From positions 1-64,000 of IMG/VR virus record IMGVR_UViG_3300047561_001970: a stretch of DNA of 64,000 bases; one strand, written 5' to 3'. Of this stretch, positions 32,175 through 62,509 are shown in pieces. The notes beneath the pieces are model-generated. The model was given only the letters and a program-made list of their open reading frames with translations. It was not told the DNA's origin and searched no databases. This stretch comes from a virus (lineage: Duplodnaviria; Caudoviricetes). A program made the translations under genes and the position numbers. Each line of letters opens with the position of its first letter. The stretch's first letter is position 1.

Positions 32175-32182
32175 TATAAATA
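32175..32182 (+). promoter_or_regulatory. T4-type late promoter
   Basis: TATAAATA, 5 nt before ATG 32188. Confidence 0.8.
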
Positions 32183-32187
32183 ATGCT

Positions 32188-32655
32188 ATGGCAGCAATAG
32201 TAGTCAACTCTGTAACTTCAACAGTTTCTGGCTCTCTCTATAAAGACTTGTTACTGGACGTGAAAATAGACTATACACGAAATACTCAGCTTCTCAAGCG
32301 AAGAGAAGTAAAAGACATTCAAATTTCAGAAAATATCAATGCAATAAAAAACAGTCTATTTAACCTATTTACAACTATGCCAGGACAAAAAATTCTTAAC
32401 CCAGTTTATGGTTTGAATCTTACTCAATATCTATTCGTCCAAGCCACTCGACAGCAAGGTAGAATTATAGGCGAGACCATACTCAAGGGTGTGAGCAAGT
32501 ATGAGCCTCGTGTAACCATGAGAAAGCTCAACGTTGAAGTTGATGAAGATAATAATCAATACAACATCTTTATGCTAATCGATGTGCCGACGTTAAATAT
32601 TACAGGGGTTAGCCTAAAAGGTGTTTTAGGTGACTCCGGATATTATTTTAATTAA
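32188..32655 (+). CDS. gp25: Baseplate wedge / sheath initiator
   Basis: AIKNSLFNLFTTMPGQKILNPVYGLNL...YEPRV. Confidence 0.93.
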   Translation: MAAIVVNSVTSTVSGSLYKDLLLDVKIDYTRNTQLLKRREVKDIQISENINAIKNSLFNLFTTMPGQKILNPVYGLNLTQYLFVQATRQQGRIIGETILKGVSKYEPRVTMRKLNVEVDEDNNQYNIFMLIDVPTLNITGVSLKGVLGDSGYYFN

Positions 32656-45985: not shown

Positions 45986-45993
45986 GATAAATA
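45986..45993 (+). promoter_or_regulatory. T4-type late promoter
   Basis: GATAAATA, 4 nt before ATG 45998. Confidence 0.7.
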
Positions 45994-45997
45994 ATAT

Positions 45998-48900
45998 ATG
46001 CTCACCAGTTTTGTAACACCAAGTAATTATAAAGGATTGAGTGCATCCTATATATATGATAATCAAATAGATTTCACTAATAAGAGTATAGGCATCGATG
46101 GTAATCTATCTACTTTTTTTTCTCCTATTTTCTTAGAAACACATGACTTTAATAACAACAATTATAGCTTTCTACATTTGACAAAGCCTTTGAATTTAGC
46201 TTCAATTACAGATTTTAAGACGCCAGAGAAACTCAATAATGTGTTATTTGGTACCATATACAACCCTGTTAACGGTGTAAACAGGTATTTAAATCTTACA
46301 AACATACCCACAGTTACACCTACAGGGTTGTCACAACTATCCTACACACAATCCATGGTTGTGACGCTATCCGGTATTGTAAACAATTGTATTTTTGAAA
46401 TAGATATGGTTAGCCCATACTCTGCTACTATATCTCACCTTACAACTAGAAACCATCTTTACTACTTGTCGTTTAACCCCAGCTCATTAAGTTTAGATTT
46501 TCTGGTGTTGAGTGCGTTTAGCGCCTCTAACGATTATACAAGAAAGTTTGTGTACACTTTTGATAAAGACACAGGACAACTTACTCTGCAGGTAAGAATC
46601 AGAGGATTTGCATACTATGTTATATATGATGATAACAATCAAAAATTATCTCTATCCAGTACAAGCGATATTGCATTTAATAGTGCAAAAAAAGTCTTTT
46701 ATGTGGATTTTTTTGATGTGCCTACTGCCCCAGAGATTACTAATGATTGGGGTACATATAAAACTGGATTTAATCAAAATAATTTAAATATAAATGTTGC
46801 AGATAGTTTTTTTGGTATAGATAATAACTTCTTAATACATAGTGAGTATGAAAATCTTCAAGGATCTACATTAAAAACTAATATCCTAACCTTAAAGAAT
46901 CAACTTAATATAAAGAATCAGCAAGGCAGAGGCAATGTGTTTATTAATGAAAATTCAACTTTTTACAGAAATTATAATACCATTTTTTCAGGAAGACGAC
47001 AGGAGCAAGGATATGAAAAACTTCACTTCCAGTATGATTGTTATTCAACACCGCTTATCTTTAATCAAGGCAAAACAACATGGTTTCATACACCACAAAA
47101 TATGTATCCTTATAAAAGACTTAATATTAAATCATCAAAATTAGTGGAGGCAGGTGCAGTTGCAGGTAACCACCCATTAAAAAGTGATAAAGTTTTTAAA
47201 AAGCAAGCCAATTACAAGTATACAAGTAATCAAGGTGATGCTACAGGCGAGCAAACTGGTCAATGGCTCTGCAGCTGGCTTTCTGGTGGTAATGATAAAA
47301 ATGTAAGGCCTGTGTGGGTGGATAGATACTACACACCAACAAAAAATACAGCATTTCAAGCGTTATGTGCTATTGATGGCAATGTAACTTATATTACATC
47401 TTTTGATGGGTATAATTTAAAGACTGGTATTGTTGATACACCATCAAGTTTAACTCTAGAACCAGGATGCTGGTATGCTTACTCTCGCTTTGGAAAAATC
47501 GATGCTATCAATAATATTAATAGTATATCAAAGACGTTGAAACAGAAAAATTTCACATATTACTCAATATGGAATGGAACTAATGTTGATCCTGATATAG
47601 ATGACAATCTTACTTCATACACTTTTGATGGTCGTCGCTATAGTTACTTTGATGTTAACAATATTGCGTTAGATACTAATACGTTTACAATGACGTTATG
47701 GGCAAATAGTTCTGACTGGACTAAGCCTCTTGGTTATGAAATTTTTGGTAATTATAATGACTATGGTCTTGGAATTTTCAACTACTCTCAAGTGACCCCG
47801 TTGCTATTTTACGGTCAAAATGGCGCTCTTGCCGCGTATAATGCTGACCTGGATCTAGTGGATACATATGATACTGCTCTATCCACTTTTGGCAATATTG
47901 ATTTTGTTCTTCGTCGTGATGCTCTTAACTCCTTTCACGTTATTACTGATAAAATGCAGGTCGTAGAATATGATATACGTGAAACTATTATTGATGCAAC
48001 CCCTGCCCTTTCAAGCTCCAGGTATTCTATAATACATGCTTCCAATGATGAAGCTCGTGGCTATGTTTTATATTCTGATAAGAGTCTAAGCGCAATAGAT
48101 TTAACATCAAATCTTGTGTACCCGACATCTGCAGATCTAATTATAGGCAAACCTATTGACGCGCTGCAGGTGTCCAGGTTGTTGGATGGTAGAATTATTT
48201 TAGTAGACGGTACAAACAGTGTTGTTAGAAGTGATGGTTTGTTCTTCCTTAGTTCAGGCATTATATGCAAGTACAACACAACAACAAGCCAGCTCTGCAC
48301 AGTTGCTGGTACCAGAGGTACCTTTTCGTTTTTTAATATAGATAGAGATAATAACCTATGGGCTGGGGATAGTAATTTTATAGCAGTCTACGGCCCATAT
48401 CAAAATCTTACCTTCACTACTACACTCACGACAGCTTCAGCTTTTTCTACAAAACCTATTTACATACAAAACCTCACTTTTATAGAAAATTTTTATAACG
48501 GTGAACTGGAGAAGTCGGTACTGGTGACAGCGAGCGGTTCAGATATTACTAAAGCAGTAGGGTTAAAGCTAGACTATAACGGCAACGTGATAGATACTAG
48601 TTTTATTAACGTCAACGGCAATTATAACCCAAAATTTGAGCCCTGTAATCATAATTTTAATTATTCTTATTTGAAGTACCGGTATGGTACAGGAGTCTTA
48701 ACGTTTAAGACTAGATTATACAATCAATTCAACACAGAAGATATAACAATTCCTTCTATAACTGTTGAAGGTCGTGATTTAGATAGCGGCTACCATCACT
48801 TTGCTATTGCTCTAAACCCTCCTGCAGGTACATTAAAGCTTTATCTAGATGGAGAATTATATGGTACATCGTTATTTGAACCAAACAAATATAATTTTAC

Positions 48901-56509: not shown

Positions 56510-56517
56510 AATAAATA
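56510..56517 (+). promoter_or_regulatory. T4-type late promoter
   Basis: AATAAATA, 4 nt before ATG 56522. Confidence 0.75.
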
Positions 56518-56521
56518 ACAT

Positions 56522-57196
56522 ATGGCTTTAAGACTATTAGTTGAAACACCTGCTCCTGAAGATCAATACGAATACGTGGTTGAAGAGAAGAATGGTAGCC
56601 AATCAAGCACCATGTACATCAAAGGCCCTTACATGCAGTGTGAAGAAGTTAATAAGAATAAAAGAGTTTATGATTCAGGGGAAATGGATCGCGAAGTCAA
56701 TCGTTATATTCATGAAATGATCAAAACAAACAGAAGCATGGGTGAATTGAACCATCCAACTGCTGCTGAAGTCAATCTGGAGCGTGCCTGCCATTTGGTA
56801 ACAGAAATGAATCGCTCTGGTAATGTGTATTATGGTAAGTCCAAAGTACTAACCACCCCCATGGGTCAAATTGTTCGCAGTTTGATCAATGATGGTGTGC
56901 GTGTTGGTGTAAGTTCTCGTGCTCTAGGATCATTGCAAGAGATGGGCAATGGTGTTAACCGGGTGAAAGATTTTCGTCTTGTGGCTGTGGATTGTGTTGC
57001 AGATCCAAGCTTTCCAAAAGCATTTGTAAATGGCATTCTGGAATCCAAACAGTTTGTTGCAACTGGTGATGGTCATTTTGAAGAATATTATGATTCTTTC
57101 AGTGACAAGTTGCGCAACTTGCCAAGAAAAGATGTGGAAGGTTATCTCAAAGAACAGATTGTGGAGTTCTTTTCGAAGATTAGCAAAGTTCTATGA
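56522..57196 (+). CDS. gp21: Prohead core protease
   Basis: IKGPYMQ...NKNKRVY, GELNHP, VNLERACH, GVSSRALGSL, DCVADPS...AFVNGILE. Confidence 0.96.
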   Translation: MALRLLVETPAPEDQYEYVVEEKNGSQSSTMYIKGPYMQCEEVNKNKRVYDSGEMDREVNRYIHEMIKTNRSMGELNHPTAAEVNLERACHLVTEMNRSGNVYYGKSKVLTTPMGQIVRSLINDGVRVGVSSRALGSLQEMGNGVNRVKDFRLVAVDCVADPSFPKAFVNGILESKQFVATGDGHFEEYYDSFSDKLRNLPRKDVEGYLKEQIVEFFSKISKVL

Positions 57197-58556: not shown

Positions 58557-60029
58557 ATGAAATCAATCAGACCGACAACGGCCTATATTGATGAGTCTCG
58601 CGCCAAAGCGTTGCTCGAAAAGTGGAAGCCAGTTTTGGATTACACTTCAGACAACGTCAGGCCCATTGAAGACGATCACACTCGCTTAAATACAGCTATG
58701 CTCTTGGAAAACCAAGAGTCCTGGTGTATTGGCGAAGCGAACGTTGCCGGTGGAACAGGCTCGGTATTCGGTGGTTCATACAGTGGTACAGGTGGAATGG
58801 GTGGCCAAGGCGGTGCTTTTGGCAACGCGTCCCCCCAAGGCGACTGGTATGCAACTGGCGATTCCCGCTTGCCCAAGATACTCATCCCAATGATTCGTAG
58901 AACGTTCCCCGAGCTAATCACCAATGAAATTGTAGGCGTACAGCCCATGGGCGGACCAGTAGGTCTTGCCTTTGCTTTACGTTATAAGTATTCCGCTAAC
59001 CAGCTAGGTAATGATGGCGTCGACGGTTCCGGCACAAATGCCGGTGCCGCTCTCGGCAGCCCTCAATCCGCCGCTGCAGGCAAAGAACTTGGCTACCAGT
59101 ATCTCGATACCCGTTACACGGGCACATCGAGCTCTAAACTCTCCGGTGGCGATGCCTTGGCAGCCTCTCTCTTCCCCTCAATCGGGGCAGATCAGGGCGT
59201 TGCTCAGGTCCTCGCTAACTTCGAATTGACGGGTAAAATCCCTCAGATCGAAGTTTCGTTTGAAAAAACGGCCGTCGAAGCTGGTACTCGTAGACTTGCT
59301 GCACGCTGGTCTGTGGAACTCGAACAGGATCTTAAGAACATGAATGGCATCGATATCGATACCGAACTCACCAACGCTATGTCGTATGAGTTGCAGGCCG
59401 AAATCGATCGCGAAATGATTGTTCGTATGATCCAAGTTTCGCTGAATGCTGGAGCCGGTACAGGTTATTCTGTATGGTCCCCCGCTTCCGCGGATGGTCG
59501 CTGGTTAGTAGAGCGCAATCGCGACTTCTACCAACGTTTGATCATCGAGGCTAACAGAATCGCAGTTCGTAACCGTCGTGGTGCTGCCAACTTTATAGTT
59601 GCAACACCTCGCGTTTGCGCGATTCTCGAGATGCTTCCTGAGTTTCAATGGGTGCCCGTCCAAGGCAATGTCAACACTCAACCTGTTGGCGTAGCCAAGG
59701 TAGGCAACCTAGGTGGTCGTTTCAACGTATACCGTGATACACGCACAGAAGCCCAATATGAGGGTGGATTGCGTGGTACGCGCGTAGAGTACGCCCTATT
59801 GGGCTACAAAGGACCAGAGTTTTATGACACTGGTATCATCTACTGCCCGTACATCCCGGTTATGGTACAACGTACAATTGGCCCCAATGACTTCAGCCCC
59901 CGTGTTGGTCTTCTGACCCGCTACGGTGTTGTTGATAACATCTTTGGCGCTAACTTGTATTATCATACCATCTTGTTGAGCGGTCTCGGTCAAGCGTTCA
60001 CGCCCGGTACACAATCTGTGTACTTCTAA
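58557..60029 (+). CDS. gp23: Major capsid protein
   Basis: LLEKWKPVL, LIPMIRRTFPELITNEIVGVQPMGGPVGLAFALRY, RRLAARWSVELEQDL, YCPYIP, F-S-PRVGLLTRYG. Confidence 0.98.
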   Translation: MKSIRPTTAYIDESRAKALLEKWKPVLDYTSDNVRPIEDDHTRLNTAMLLENQESWCIGEANVAGGTGSVFGGSYSGTGGMGGQGGAFGNASPQGDWYATGDSRLPKILIPMIRRTFPELITNEIVGVQPMGGPVGLAFALRYKYSANQLGNDGVDGSGTNAGAALGSPQSAAAGKELGYQYLDTRYTGTSSSKLSGGDALAASLFPSIGADQGVAQVLANFELTGKIPQIEVSFEKTAVEAGTRRLAARWSVELEQDLKNMNGIDIDTELTNAMSYELQAEIDREMIVRMIQVSLNAGAGTGYSVWSPASADGRWLVERNRDFYQRLIIEANRIAVRNRRGAANFIVATPRVCAILEMLPEFQWVPVQGNVNTQPVGVAKVGNLGGRFNVYRDTRTEAQYEGGLRGTRVEYALLGYKGPEFYDTGIIYCPYIPVMVQRTIGPNDFSPRVGLLTRYGVVDNIFGANLYYHTILLSGLGQAFTPGTQSVYF

Positions 60030-60121: not shown

Positions 60122-60129
60122 TATAAATA
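60122..60129 (+). promoter_or_regulatory. T4-type late promoter
   Basis: TATAAATA, 4 nt before ATG 60134. Confidence 0.85.
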
Positions 60130-60133
60130 ACAT

Positions 60134-61219
60134 ATGGCCATAGTACCACTTTCTGACTTAAAAACTTCATTCTCATCTGGCCACATTCCAAGCTCCAATG
60201 ATTTTGCAAACTTAATTGACACCACCAGCGCTCTACCCTCAGGTGGTATCATTGGTTCAGTATACACAACAAACTTGACGCTAGTGCAAGGCGCGACCGG
60301 GATCCCCGTGATTATAGGTGGTAATACCTATTATCTGCCTGTGTTCACCACAGTCACTGCACCTTCACCAAACCAAACAGCATACACCACCACAGTGAGA
60401 CAAACATATCCAAATGCAATGCTGGCAGAAACTGTGGGTGCAAGATGTGCCACAGTCATACAGAGTCTGTGTGGTTATGCACCAGGTGATGTGATTGCAG
60501 CAGCTTGCATATGCTCAGATGATAAAAATGCTCCCATTTTCCCCAACAACACATTTGGTCAATACCCCACATCTTTGCAACAATTTTCTGGGCCATTCTT
60601 CGCAGGTGGCATTGGTGGTTATCCTTTCCCAGGCATTGTGGGGCTGTTTGCATGGATGAGCCATGTGACCACACCTGGTGCATTGTTCATATATGTGCAC
60701 CCACACATTGGCATCACTCAGAGTGGTCAGGTGGGGTTCATGAAGCGCCGAGGTCAACAAGGCAATCTGGATCGAACATGTGGTGCTGTGAATGCAGCAC
60801 AAGCCAGAATTGTGGGTACACTGAGTGCAACAGCACCTGTATTCCCAAGTGCAGAATTTACTGTTAATGATTTTCAACAATATACTCTGGTGAATGCACT
60901 GTATTCCAACAAAACCACACGCAATGCACTCACAGCAGCTGCACCAGTGCAAGGTGGCACATATGCCCAGAGAATGAAGATAGCTACTGATGCTATTCTG
61001 GTTGCAGCATTGAGTGCAGTGGAAACAATTTTGCCCATATCTTATGGTGCCTTCTTCCAGGGTGAAAACACAGTGGATGTGTTTGTGCATGCAGGCACAT
61101 TCATCAATGTGGATGATGGTTACAGTGCTTACATAGACACCATTGCATTCAAGAAATACAATCCAGTCACACAGACATTCACCACCCTCACCAATGCTTT
61201 CACAGCAGCTTTTGTTTGA
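60134..61219 (+). CDS. LCIB/LCIC-family beta-carbonic anhydrase with structural-type N-terminal module
   Basis: CSDD, GPFFAGGIGGYPFPGIVG...SHV, LFIYVHPHIGI, RRGQ, TCGA: the LCIB-family signature with Cys/His/Cys Zn ligands and Asp/Arg. Confidence 0.85.
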   Translation: MAIVPLSDLKTSFSSGHIPSSNDFANLIDTTSALPSGGIIGSVYTTNLTLVQGATGIPVIIGGNTYYLPVFTTVTAPSPNQTAYTTTVRQTYPNAMLAETVGARCATVIQSLCGYAPGDVIAAACICSDDKNAPIFPNNTFGQYPTSLQQFSGPFFAGGIGGYPFPGIVGLFAWMSHVTTPGALFIYVHPHIGITQSGQVGFMKRRGQQGNLDRTCGAVNAAQARIVGTLSATAPVFPSAEFTVNDFQQYTLVNALYSNKTTRNALTAAAPVQGGTYAQRMKIATDAILVAALSAVETILPISYGAFFQGENTVDVFVHAGTFINVDDGYSAYIDTIAFKKYNPVTQTFTTLTNAFTAAFV

Positions 61220-61480
61220 TACAGTTCAAACAAATAAACTTATTTAATGCTTCACCCTCGCACCGTATACGGCGCAGCATTTTGCACCTGATGTCACCAC
61301 CAGGATTGGACTATATCTTCACATGTTTGTGCTGCTTGTTCGTGCTGGTTATTAAGGATTCCTGTTCCTCCAGTAGTCTCTACACCTTCCAGAGAAGCGT
61401 CTCTGGCTTGGCTCGGGATTGTCTCCACAGGAGAGTTTCCCCGAATTAAAGCAGTAGGGGCCATTGTTTCAAAGATCTGA
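61210..61480 (-). ncRNA. Group I ribozyme (intron core P3-P9 with P7.1 insertion), free-standing
   Basis: P AAUUCGGGGAAAC, Q CAAUCCCGAGCCAAGC, R GAAGGUGUAGAGACUA, S GUGAAGAUAUAGUCCA. P3 CUGCUU/AAGCAG, P7 GACUA/UAGUC with bulged A, P8 and P9 with GUGA loop all pair. Confidence 0.9.
61211..61234. terminator. Hairpin between convergent transcripts (possible weak terminator)
   Basis: TTTGTTTGA-TACAGT-TCAAACAAA, 9 bp, overlaps the CA stop codon; no strong U-tract on either side. Confidence 0.45.
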
Positions 61481-61483
61481 TAA

Positions 61484-61491
61484 TATTTATA
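61484..61491 (-). promoter_or_regulatory. T4-type late promoter preceding the ribozyme
   Basis: TATAAATA overlapping the stop of the upstream gene; no credible CDS follows. Confidence 0.7.
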
Positions 61492-62509
61492 CATAAACAT
61501 ACAAAGAATGTAAGTACCCTAAACCTAATCCGTCACCAGACACATGCACAGGTCCTGCACTCTTATATCTACCATGGTACTTAGCTGGTTTAAAATATTG
61601 TCCATCAGGGTATGTTACTGGATTAAAAGTCCAGCGATAAGCAGGCATAATGCTTGCATCTTGCAGTTTGTTGCTGTTGGTTTCAAAGGTTTCTGCCCCC
61701 CACATTATTCCTGTTCCTGAAGCTGGAATAGTAAAAAACCCTACTTGCCATTTATTAATGGCCATGTTGAACAATATGGTACCATCAAATGCCAGTACCC
61801 CACCTGTACTAGTTAACTGATATACTGGACCAAAATTATTACCATTGGCATCTGTATAGGAATCAGCTTTTTTAAAATATTCACCTTCAAATGTGCCACC
61901 ATCAGGCCCACCAGTTGTTAAGAAACCTTCTTGTGTAACAGTTTGTCTTCCTTGTTGTGGTCTCAATTGCCTGGATCCCCACATGCACCAGCTTATGATC
62001 AACCTAGCAGAACATGTCAAAGGCCGTGTAGAGCCTGTGCGATTTTTAATCCAAGCAGTTAAACTGGATTTGAATGCTGCACTGTTGTATTTGCTGTCAT
62101 TGATAATTTTTGTGAATTTAAAATTAGGGTATGAATAAAAAAGAGCTGCATCTGGCACATCTCTTATTCTTTTGATATTGTATGCTTGATGTCCGCTCAT
62201 AACATAATCTGTTGATGCATTAGCTGCCGATAAAGAAAAGCTGTGCATGGTTATGTATCTTTGAACCAGTCCTACTTTGCCACTTGTGGAGTATTTGGCA
62301 TCTAAATCACTATTTGCCTCACCACCATATCCATCATGTATCACATAACTATTGTTATAATATTCACTAATTTTTCCGCTATCTCTTGCTTGACCATCAT
62401 ATGTTATGAGAAGTGGTCGGCTTCGAGGGTAATTTTGAGGAGTACTCACACCATCTACTACCGAAATGGAAGTCTTCACAAACTGACTGGGCTGAGTTGC
62501 AATCATCAT
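61487..62509 (-). CDS. Hypothetical structural/fibre-associated protein
   Basis: 340 aa from ATG 62509 (ATGA overlap with the upstream gene); G/S/T/aromatic-rich. Confidence 0.75.
   Translation of the reverse strand: MMIATQPSQFVKTSISVVDGVSTPQNYPRSRPLLITYDGQARDSGKISEYYNNSYVIHDGYGGEANSDLDAKYSTSGKVGLVQRYITMHSFSLSAANASTDYVMSGHQAYNIKRIRDVPDAALFYSYPNFKFTKIINDSKYNSAAFKSSLTAWIKNRTGSTRPLTCSARLIISWCMWGSRQLRPQQGRQTVTQEGFLTTGGPDGGTFEGEYFKKADSYTDANGNNFGPVYQLTSTGGVLAFDGTILFNMAINKWQVGFFTIPASGTGIMWGAETFETNSNKLQDASIMPAYRWTFNPVTYPDGQYFKPAKYHGRYKSAGPVHVSGDGLGLGYLHSLYVYV

Follow-up and report, generated by a model that had tools for sequence, protein, structure and literature searches.

A candidate guide-first group I ribozyme with its predicted cleavage site behind the core, found in several phage lineages

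What is a complete group I ribozyme core doing between two convergent phage genes, with no gene to interrupt? The question is raised by a 64,000-nt stretch of viral DNA, positions 1 to 64,000 of the 85-kb IMG/VR record IMGVR_UViG_3300047561_001970 (the window, below), which comes from a T4-like freshwater phage. An initial annotation, made from the sequence alone, had placed on the minus strand of one intergenic gap a free-standing ribozyme with its own phage late promoter. We observe a conserved core, together with a covarying helix between its guide strand and a GGGU that lies in the 3' domain of the same RNA, in recurrent gene contexts. We consider it somewhat better than an even bet that this element is a guide-first (P1-permuted) group I ribozyme, not an intron, and that it would cleave itself in a guanosine-dependent reaction at U61254|G61253. 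Ribozyme positions below are minus-strand positions in the window.

The ribozyme core and its P1-type helix

Rfam matched its full RF00028 (Intron_gpI) model to 61287-61505(-) with 62.5 bits, above the gathering score of 50 (E = 1.8e-13). No other family, neither a riboswitch (c-di-GMP or other) nor GIR1, matched at E<=1 in 61100-61650, and a terminator scan around the element found none. The element is single-copy in the record. Every core pairing named by the initial annotation is present, among them P3 (61454-61449 with 61337-61332) and the P7 region (G61380-C61308, bulged A61379, G61378-C61309). The lack of a P2 was also called correctly, and the guide adjoins P3. What had been missed is a conserved P9.1 domain beyond P9 (Table 1).

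The annotation had proposed a covariance-model search, answered by the RF00028 match, and a test for covariation among homologues. For the latter, a manual structure model was scored on an alignment of 10 homologous ribozyme copies (A3). Standard pairs filled 95.8% of cells, against ∼40% in slid controls, 21 pairs showed compensatory changes on both sides, and 0/500 shuffles matched the observed values for any of five measures. The covarying helices are P6a, P7.1, P8 and P9, plus two helices 3' of P9. In the window copy 69 of 70 modelled pairs are standard, and the G-binding site, J8/7 and J6/7 are retained across copies. Ribozymes are 85–91% identical between loci at which the DNA of the upstream gene (gene A, see below) is only 57–77% identical.

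A wider set was collected by scanning viral, genomic and metagenomic contigs for the invariant core motifs. It holds 21 unique cores with the common signature GCCCNU-A-P3-N-AAUUCGG; two more (L129 and L135) escaped the regular expressions, were read by eye, and are left out of the script-scored counts. The exact 18-mer TACTGCTTTAATTCGGGG had no match in viral contigs and 12 in metagenomes, of which only one locus, L084, is a close relative.

The guide GCCCCU (61461-61456) pairs with a conserved GGGU (61257-61254) in the 3' domain. There, a single-stranded (A/G)GGGU follows the inner hairpin and precedes the 3' strand of the closing helix, whose sequence across A3 is AAUGCY/RGCAUU. GGGU-N-A was found in 21 of the 22 3' domains that had enough 3' sequence, the sequences being otherwise unrelated; in the window and in L139, where a fortuitous second GGGU is present, the site was assigned by homology. 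The four pairs of GCCC:GGGU, including the G.U wobble, are invariant in 21/21 unique cores. The pairs on either side vary. The pair at alignment index 49:248 is standard in 14 of 21 cores (U:A 6, C:G 4, G:C 2, G.U 2) and the pair at 44:253, just past the wobble, in 17 of 21 (G:C 12, U:A 2, C:G 1, G.U 2), with shuffle P values of 0.006 and 0.012, respectively, which are optimistic because the sequences are phylogenetically related. This flanking covariation extends across at least six phage lineages. In the two cores read by eye, both of the Flavobacterium-phage type, the pairing is GUCCU:AGGAU and GUCCA:UGGAU, with a pair of the helix core itself changed in a compensatory way.

Identity of the guide is further fixed by L006, where, after a 12-nt leader deletion, no Gs but those of UGGCCCC, one base before P3, are left to act as a guide. 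The RNAfold minimum-energy structure of the window contains the guide:GGGU helix unprompted, at an overall z-score of only −1.9. An invariant internal G.U between covarying neighbours argues for the reactive P1 of a group I ribozyme over a structural stem, and a reactive P1 in the 3' domain would put the cut-site strand behind the core, as if an intron had been opened in its P1 loop. A P1 helix with its U.G wobble and internal guide is thus present, with the substrate strand 3' of the core instead of in a contiguous upstream exon. The annotation had suggested that the guide could act on the ribozyme's own flanks, and the conserved GGGU that pairs with it gives that suggestion a probable site. 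Apart from this site, GGGUs at 61515-61518(-) and at ∼61180-61190(-), both private to the window and the second antisense to the neighbouring carbonic-anhydrase open reading frame (ORF), could be fortuitous alternative guide substrates.

Table 1. Features of the ribozyme locus (window positions)
Feature	Positions	Strand	Evidence
Gene A, 340 aa, no Pfam or PHROG family; ends ...GLGLGYLHSLYVYV*; stop TAA 61489-61487	61487-62509	-	ORF lists, homologues, alignment A1, last-codon synonymous variation
TATAAATA, T4-type late-promoter-like motif overlapping the gene A stop	61484-61491	-	ATAAATA in 10/10 copies; promoter function putative
Leader motif AGAUCUUU (AGUUCUUU in relatives), first base 6 nt past the promoter motif, close to where the transcript is predicted to start	61471-61478	-	Conserved in 9/10 copies in A3
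Guide (internal guide sequence-like) strand GGCCCCU, one base 5' of P3; G61461 is the wobble partner	61456-61462	-	Signature in 21 unique cores
Catalytic core: P3, P4, P5, P6/P6a, P7 (G-binding site), P7.1, P8, J8/7, P9 (GUGA loop)	61287-61454	-	RF00028, covariation on A3
P9.1 domain: closing helix 61281-61276 with 61251-61246, inner hairpin 61275-61260, single-stranded substrate strand	61246-61281	-	Both helices covary; same architecture in other lineages
Substrate strand GAGGGU|G, pairing with the guide; predicted scissile bond U61254-G61253	61253-61259	-	GGGU-N-A site, covarying flanks, RNAfold
Remnant of the leader of a lost downstream gene; homology to L002, L007 and L092 stops at their ATG (ATT here)	61234-61245	-	Alignments A2, A3
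361-aa ORF with LCIB-type beta-carbonic-anhydrase domain, convergent; in place of the relatives' tail-fibre gene; not part of the ribozyme	60134-61219	+	Pfam PF18599, E = 4.2e-24

Gene A and the intron question

Group I cores normally sit inside genes, and gene A, which ends just upstream, is the candidate for an interrupted one. All five close homologues of its product (45–69% identity) terminate in the same ...GLGLGYLHSLYVYV*, and two distant ones, recovered by exhaustive profile search, terminate in ...ILHSIYIYR* and ...YLHSIYLYK*, with conservative substitutions. The C-terminus and stop are therefore conserved as protein down to ∼25% identity. Of the codon variants in the final 14 codons, 10 are synonymous and 4 non-synonymous, and most fall at third positions. 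Conservation of the C-terminus together with synonymous variation indicates that the end of gene A and its stop are real features of the protein, not read-through into an intron. These comparisons support the conclusion that the element does not interrupt gene A, whose C-terminus appears to be under protein-level selection up to the stop.

The ribozyme lies 13–25 nt past the gene A stop in 9/9 homologues of the gene. RF00028 scores are 55–68 bits in L002-L009; L092 carries a copy too, as do L090 and L091 as far as their contigs reach, and L113 is a complete relative of L091. Gene A itself matched nothing in Pfam or PHROGs, nor did the upstream genes of the other ribozyme families. Relatives of it were found neither in cultured phages (tblastn) nor in the viral-contig scan, and its AlphaFold2 model, built on a 6-sequence alignment, was unusable (mean pLDDT 42).

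An ordinary cis-splicing intron with missed exons, with either a GGGU at 61518-61515 as 5' splice site or gene A fused to a downstream exon, is in our view very improbable. It takes its appeal from an ORF that extends to the Rfam match, from a first hairpin that Rfam aligns at 61501-61481, and from the GGGU itself, which lies 57 nt upstream of the guide, inside gene A. That GGGU is private to the window, where it forms part of a Gly-Tyr codon pair; all other copies lack it and have GGA-TAC, GGA-TAT or GCT-TAC in its place. No conserved complement that could serve as 5' exon partner of the guide was found within 200 nt upstream, and a P1 formed with the upstream gene was rejected on these two grounds. 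The Rfam hairpin was likewise rejected as P1 or P2: its 3' (guide) strand has no G, and synonymous changes in L004 and L009 break its pairing without compensation. Splicing would moreover remove the C-terminal motif that is kept as protein at ∼25% identity. Each downstream gene begins at an ATG of its own, and that of L006 is preceded at 12 nt by an in-frame stop, which excludes a fusion by splicing. No single Pfam or PHROG family spans the upstream and downstream ORFs.

The initial annotation was thus right that no gene is interrupted and that no homing endonuclease accompanies the element, no such ORF being present. Its intergenic, exon-less placement stands as well, with a correction: the element is not free in the gap, since the TAA within TATAAATA is the gene A stop and the element abuts the gene. 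Nor does its picture of an independent ribozyme hold entirely. The ribozyme keeps strictly to the 3' end of one gene family, and relatives have it as the leader of a downstream virion gene.

Canonical relatives do occur. Introns with exactly the same P7-P7.1 sequence interrupt tRNA-Leu and ribonucleotide-reductase-like genes in viral contigs and metagenome-assembled genomes (L096-L099, L112, L119, L136, L140, L150, L104, L108, L111, L128 and L148), and can serve as outgroups for the origin of the guide-first layout.

Promoter motif, downstream genes and the predicted cut

T4-type late promoters are an established type of phage late promoter. The TATAAATA noted by the initial annotation lies where it was reported, at 61491-61484, 30 nt before P3. 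Its ATAAATA is invariant in 10/10 copies of the gene A-linked family (family 1), and in L090 it lies past a TAG stop, in non-coding sequence, so that its conservation is not due to coding. By number alone TATAAATA is not above chance in the window (10 occurrences, 7.3 expected). Its placement is more telling: at least 10 substantial ORFs in the window, both neighbours of the ribozyme locus among them, have NATAAATA 4–6 nt ahead of their ATG. This spacing suggests that late messages of this phage are leaderless or nearly so. ATAAATA/TATAAATA is then the apparent late promoter of the phage; of the annotation's claim that the ribozyme has its own promoter, the motif and its conservation stand, and promoter activity is what we infer from them. 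Among homologues both the motif and the exon-less context are kept.

Examples of NATAAATA before an ATG that has no Shine-Dalgarno sequence are at 60122-60136(+), 63365-63349(-), 45986-46000(+), 56510-56524(+), 32175-32190(+) and 16830-16815(-). The leader motif that follows the promoter motif in the ribozyme locus, AG(U/A)UCUUU, recurs in L004, L084, L090, L091, L102, L107, L109 and L113 and is deleted only in L006. No consistent pairing partner for it was found among J7.1/3 GAAC, the P5 3' strand and the CAAAA after P9.

In four relatives (L002, L007, L006 and L092) the ATG of a large tail-fibre gene lies 18 nt past the element; that of L002 encodes 1162 aa, with Peptidase_S74 and tail-fibre PHROG matches. 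In the window, alignment with L002 runs through AAGTTTAT and then meets TTG where L002 has GAG. From its ATG on, the downstream gene has given way to other sequence, and the window copy is left an orphan. In its place stands the carbonic-anhydrase ORF, which has TATAAATA 4 nt before its ATG and is next to the Gp23 major capsid gene (58557-60026(+)). It lies on the strand opposite to that of the relatives' tail-fibre gene, in what looks like a module swap. Beyond the window, upstream in the same operon, a 2196-aa ORF at 65.6–69.0 kb of the contig (G000; L152, L153) has 31% identity to residues 346-1020 of the L002 tail-fibre gene product.

A second family comprises L093, L110, L122, L123, L127, L137-L139 and L142. 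Here the ribozyme lies 13–21 nt past the stop of a different upstream gene, ending ...RGGxTALE*, and directly before a 900–1100-aa virion structural gene (phrog_5838). The downstream AUG follows GGGU| by 2–3 nt in six of these loci and by 7–12 nt in three, compared with 18 nt in family 1, and in family 2 it abuts or overlaps the closing helix. None of these AUGs, in either family, is preceded by a Shine-Dalgarno sequence. In cyanophage S-PM2 the family-2 gene has a homologue that likewise begins with 'MA', after an ordinary 57-nt spacer that contains GATAAATA and GAGG and no ribozyme. From this comparison, the downstream ORF is an independent cistron and the ribozyme occupies the place of a normal leader.

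Two of the family-2 loci, L123 and L127, are on one contig (IMGVR_UViG_3300007214_000017), which thus has two guide-first ribozymes, each before a paralogous 900–1100-aa virion structural gene. In L084 (1200-1270) a second ribozyme 3' end lies ∼150 nt past the ribozyme of that locus and matches the CAATTTGGGTCAACTTTTTAAATAAACAG stretch that ends the L113 ribozyme, suggesting that elements at this site have been nested or replaced. The class also has a cultured member, in Flavobacterium phage vB_FspM_immuto_2-6A (MW353175.1; L011:2386-2700; RF00028, 76.9 bits). Its ribozyme is followed by a terminator-like hairpin; the 44-aa 'hypothetical protein' annotated inside that ribozyme is probably spurious.

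We propose the following order of events. The transcript would start a few bases past TATAAATA, near 61478, or would be a continuation of the gene A message. It would present the guide GCCCCU right before P3, then the intact P3-P9 core, then the P9.1 domain displaying GGGU. Guide and GGGU would form the P1-type helix, in which the wobble G61461.U61254 marks the reactive bond, and a free guanosine nucleotide bound in P7 would attack after U61254. The 5' product would end in ...GGGU-OH and comprise the ribozyme plus whatever message lies upstream of it. The 3' product would be the downstream RNA carrying an added, non-templated 5' G, followed in the window by GAAGCAUU. In relatives that RNA would be the virion or tail-fibre message, with its AUG 2–18 nt past the cut and no Shine-Dalgarno sequence, hence short-leadered or nearly leaderless; in the window the cut would merely trim the ribozyme's own tail.

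A broader proposal, more tentative than self-cleavage itself and to us rather less than an even prospect, is that phages of multiple lineages employ a rearranged group I ribozyme as an inbuilt enzyme for RNA processing, which draws on cellular GTP to cut a late transcript just before a virion or tail-fibre gene. The outcome would be a G-tagged, possibly 5'-triphosphorylated, short-leader or leaderless message that could be translated without a Shine-Dalgarno sequence.

Several observations weigh against cleavage and against this role for it. The copies in the window, L004, L084, L113 and the Flavobacterium phage have no downstream gene on the same strand, so that cleavage there would have no obvious beneficiary, and the linkage to gene A (9/9) is tighter than that to any downstream gene. 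In family 2 the GGGU can be read as a sequestered ribosome-binding element. The window has the weakest P1 of the family, with its flanking pairs mismatched on both sides (C:A and G:G). The four core pairs never vary in the 21 scored cores, so covariation cannot be demonstrated there, and the relatedness of the sequences tempers the flanking statistics, as stated above. Finally, we know of no natural group I ribozyme whose P1 is tethered through the 3' end.

Other readings, known systems and meaning

The strongest competitor of guide-first self-cleavage is a natural circularly permuted group I intron that completes both steps, which we regard as unlikely, at roughly one chance in a handful. In it, U61254-OH would attack behind an omega-G located between P9 and the substrate strand (candidate G61278, in AAAUG|C), closing 61277-61254 into a 24-nt circle and cutting the transcript twice. 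A 5'-splice-site-like GGGU 3' of the core is indeed the permuted order of splice sites. In every lineage an A-rich linker ending in G (AAAUG, AACAUG, GAAAAG or AUUAUG) follows shortly after P9, resembling the P9-ACAACACG|exon ends of the canonical tRNA-Leu relatives in the same data set. Engineered constructs show group I cores still at work, and making circles, when placed unusually with respect to their splice sites (PMC11417360), and one coral mitochondrial group I intron is reported to back-splice (PMC6545197). Set against this, the candidate omega-G is base-paired in the closing helix in every lineage. By eye, neither a covarying P9.0 nor a P10 was found across lineages: where index 44 changes to U or C, the nucleotide next to the candidate G on its 3' side does not change to match. 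Within the would-be circle GGGU alone is conserved as sequence; the hairpin there shows covariation and no more, and the loops vary. Any circle would thus be a by-product, not the point.

It is less probable still that the window copy is a functionless relic or selfish passenger of the tail-fibre swap, intact only because the event was recent. Homology to the L002 type does stop exactly at the ATG of the lost gene, no beneficiary gene is left downstream, and both pairs that flank the P1 core are mismatched. A relic accords poorly with the near-complete set of modelled pairs (69/70), with a private compensatory pair in the window's P9.1 inner hairpin (G:C, where relatives have U:A), and with the retained promoter motif. 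At least three other lineages (L004, L084/L113 and the Flavobacterium phage type) also keep intact ribozymes without a downstream gene. Rather more doubtful than a relic is an RNA that does not cleave itself, in which the guide:GGGU helix would have a purely structural role as a P13-like pseudoknot or, in family 2, would act as a translational operator, and which might serve for example as a 3'-end stabiliser of the gene A message or act on a substrate in trans. The constant link to the 3' end of gene A would suit it, as would the position 13–25 nt from stop codons in all families and a family-2 start codon that abuts or overlaps the closing helix. It gives no reason, though, to keep an internal G.U in 21/21 cores (and, by eye, in L129 and L135) while both its neighbours change, nor to retain the G-binding site, J8/7 and J6/7. 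The 18 nt that separate GGGU and AUG in family 1, and the lineages without a downstream gene, show that GGGU is not generally a ribosome-binding site.

How would a guide-first ribozyme compare with what is known? Canonical group I introns (T4 td, nrdB and nrdD, tRNA-Leu(UAA), RF00028) share its P3-P9 core, bulged-A P7, J8/7 AAGAUAUAGUCC and GNRA-capped P9, and its GGGU/GCC-type P1 presumably resembles that of T4 td. They differ in that their reactive-U strand lies 5' of the guide, whereas here it is 3' of the core; here, too, there is no interrupted gene, no rejoined exons and no homing endonuclease, and the guide abuts P3 without a P2. Engineered 5'-exon-less trans-cleaving ribozymes of the Tetrahymena L-21 ScaI type likewise start at or just before the guide and pair with a short ...GGGU-type substrate through a G.U wobble. 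In contrast to those, the present form is a natural one, and its substrate belongs to the same RNA, tethered in cis within the 3' domain. A c-di-GMP-controlled group I ribozyme in a Clostridioides difficile 5' UTR (untranslated region), reportedly described by Lee et al. in 2010, is likewise bacterial and in a 5' leader, and the site of GTP attack near its start codon is said to decide translatability; it reportedly splices conventionally, with P1 upstream and under riboswitch control, as opposed to the permuted layout without a riboswitch here.

The lariat-capping ribozyme GIR1 of twin-ribozyme introns (Nielsen 2005; Meyer 2014, PMC4040574) is reported to be group I-derived and to sit in the leader of a protein-coding mRNA, whose 5' end it sets through one cleavage-type reaction. 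It differs in being eukaryotic and nested in an intron, with a remodelled core that makes a 2',5' lariat by branching; the core here is fully canonical, the expected chemistry is attack by exogenous G, and Rfam gave no GIR1 match. Permuted or back-splicing systems include engineered permuted intron-exon (PIE) and cis-circularisation constructs (PMC11417360), the coral ND5-717 group I intron (PMC6545197) and natural circularly permuted group II introns (PMC8637638). As in them, a 5'-splice-site-like element lies past the ribozyme's 3' end, an order that there yields circles. Here the permutation point is the P1 loop and the core is contiguous, the 3' splice site is putative, and any circle would be tiny, with a sequence that is not conserved. 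In the literature searched (full text) this layout was not described among intergenic, permuted, self-cleaving or guide-first group I ribozymes of phages.

Group I ribozymes are textbook selfish introns. To our knowledge very few natural non-intron jobs of the fold have been found, namely the lariat-capping ribozyme and the c-di-GMP-gated leader ribozyme. The family described here is conserved across multiple phage lineages, and it has its whole core ahead of its own predicted cut site, between late structural genes. The window copy adds that a member can keep its late-promoter motif and persist after the downstream gene has been swapped out, and Flavobacterium phage vB_FspM_immuto offers a cultured system. 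If the guide-first reading is true, the group I fold would have been domesticated as a cis-acting device for RNA processing or expression, a natural non-intron job for it in bacteria and phages, and the engineered guide-first arrangement would have a natural counterpart. It would also open a concrete route to testing how virion genes that have no Shine-Dalgarno sequence are expressed.

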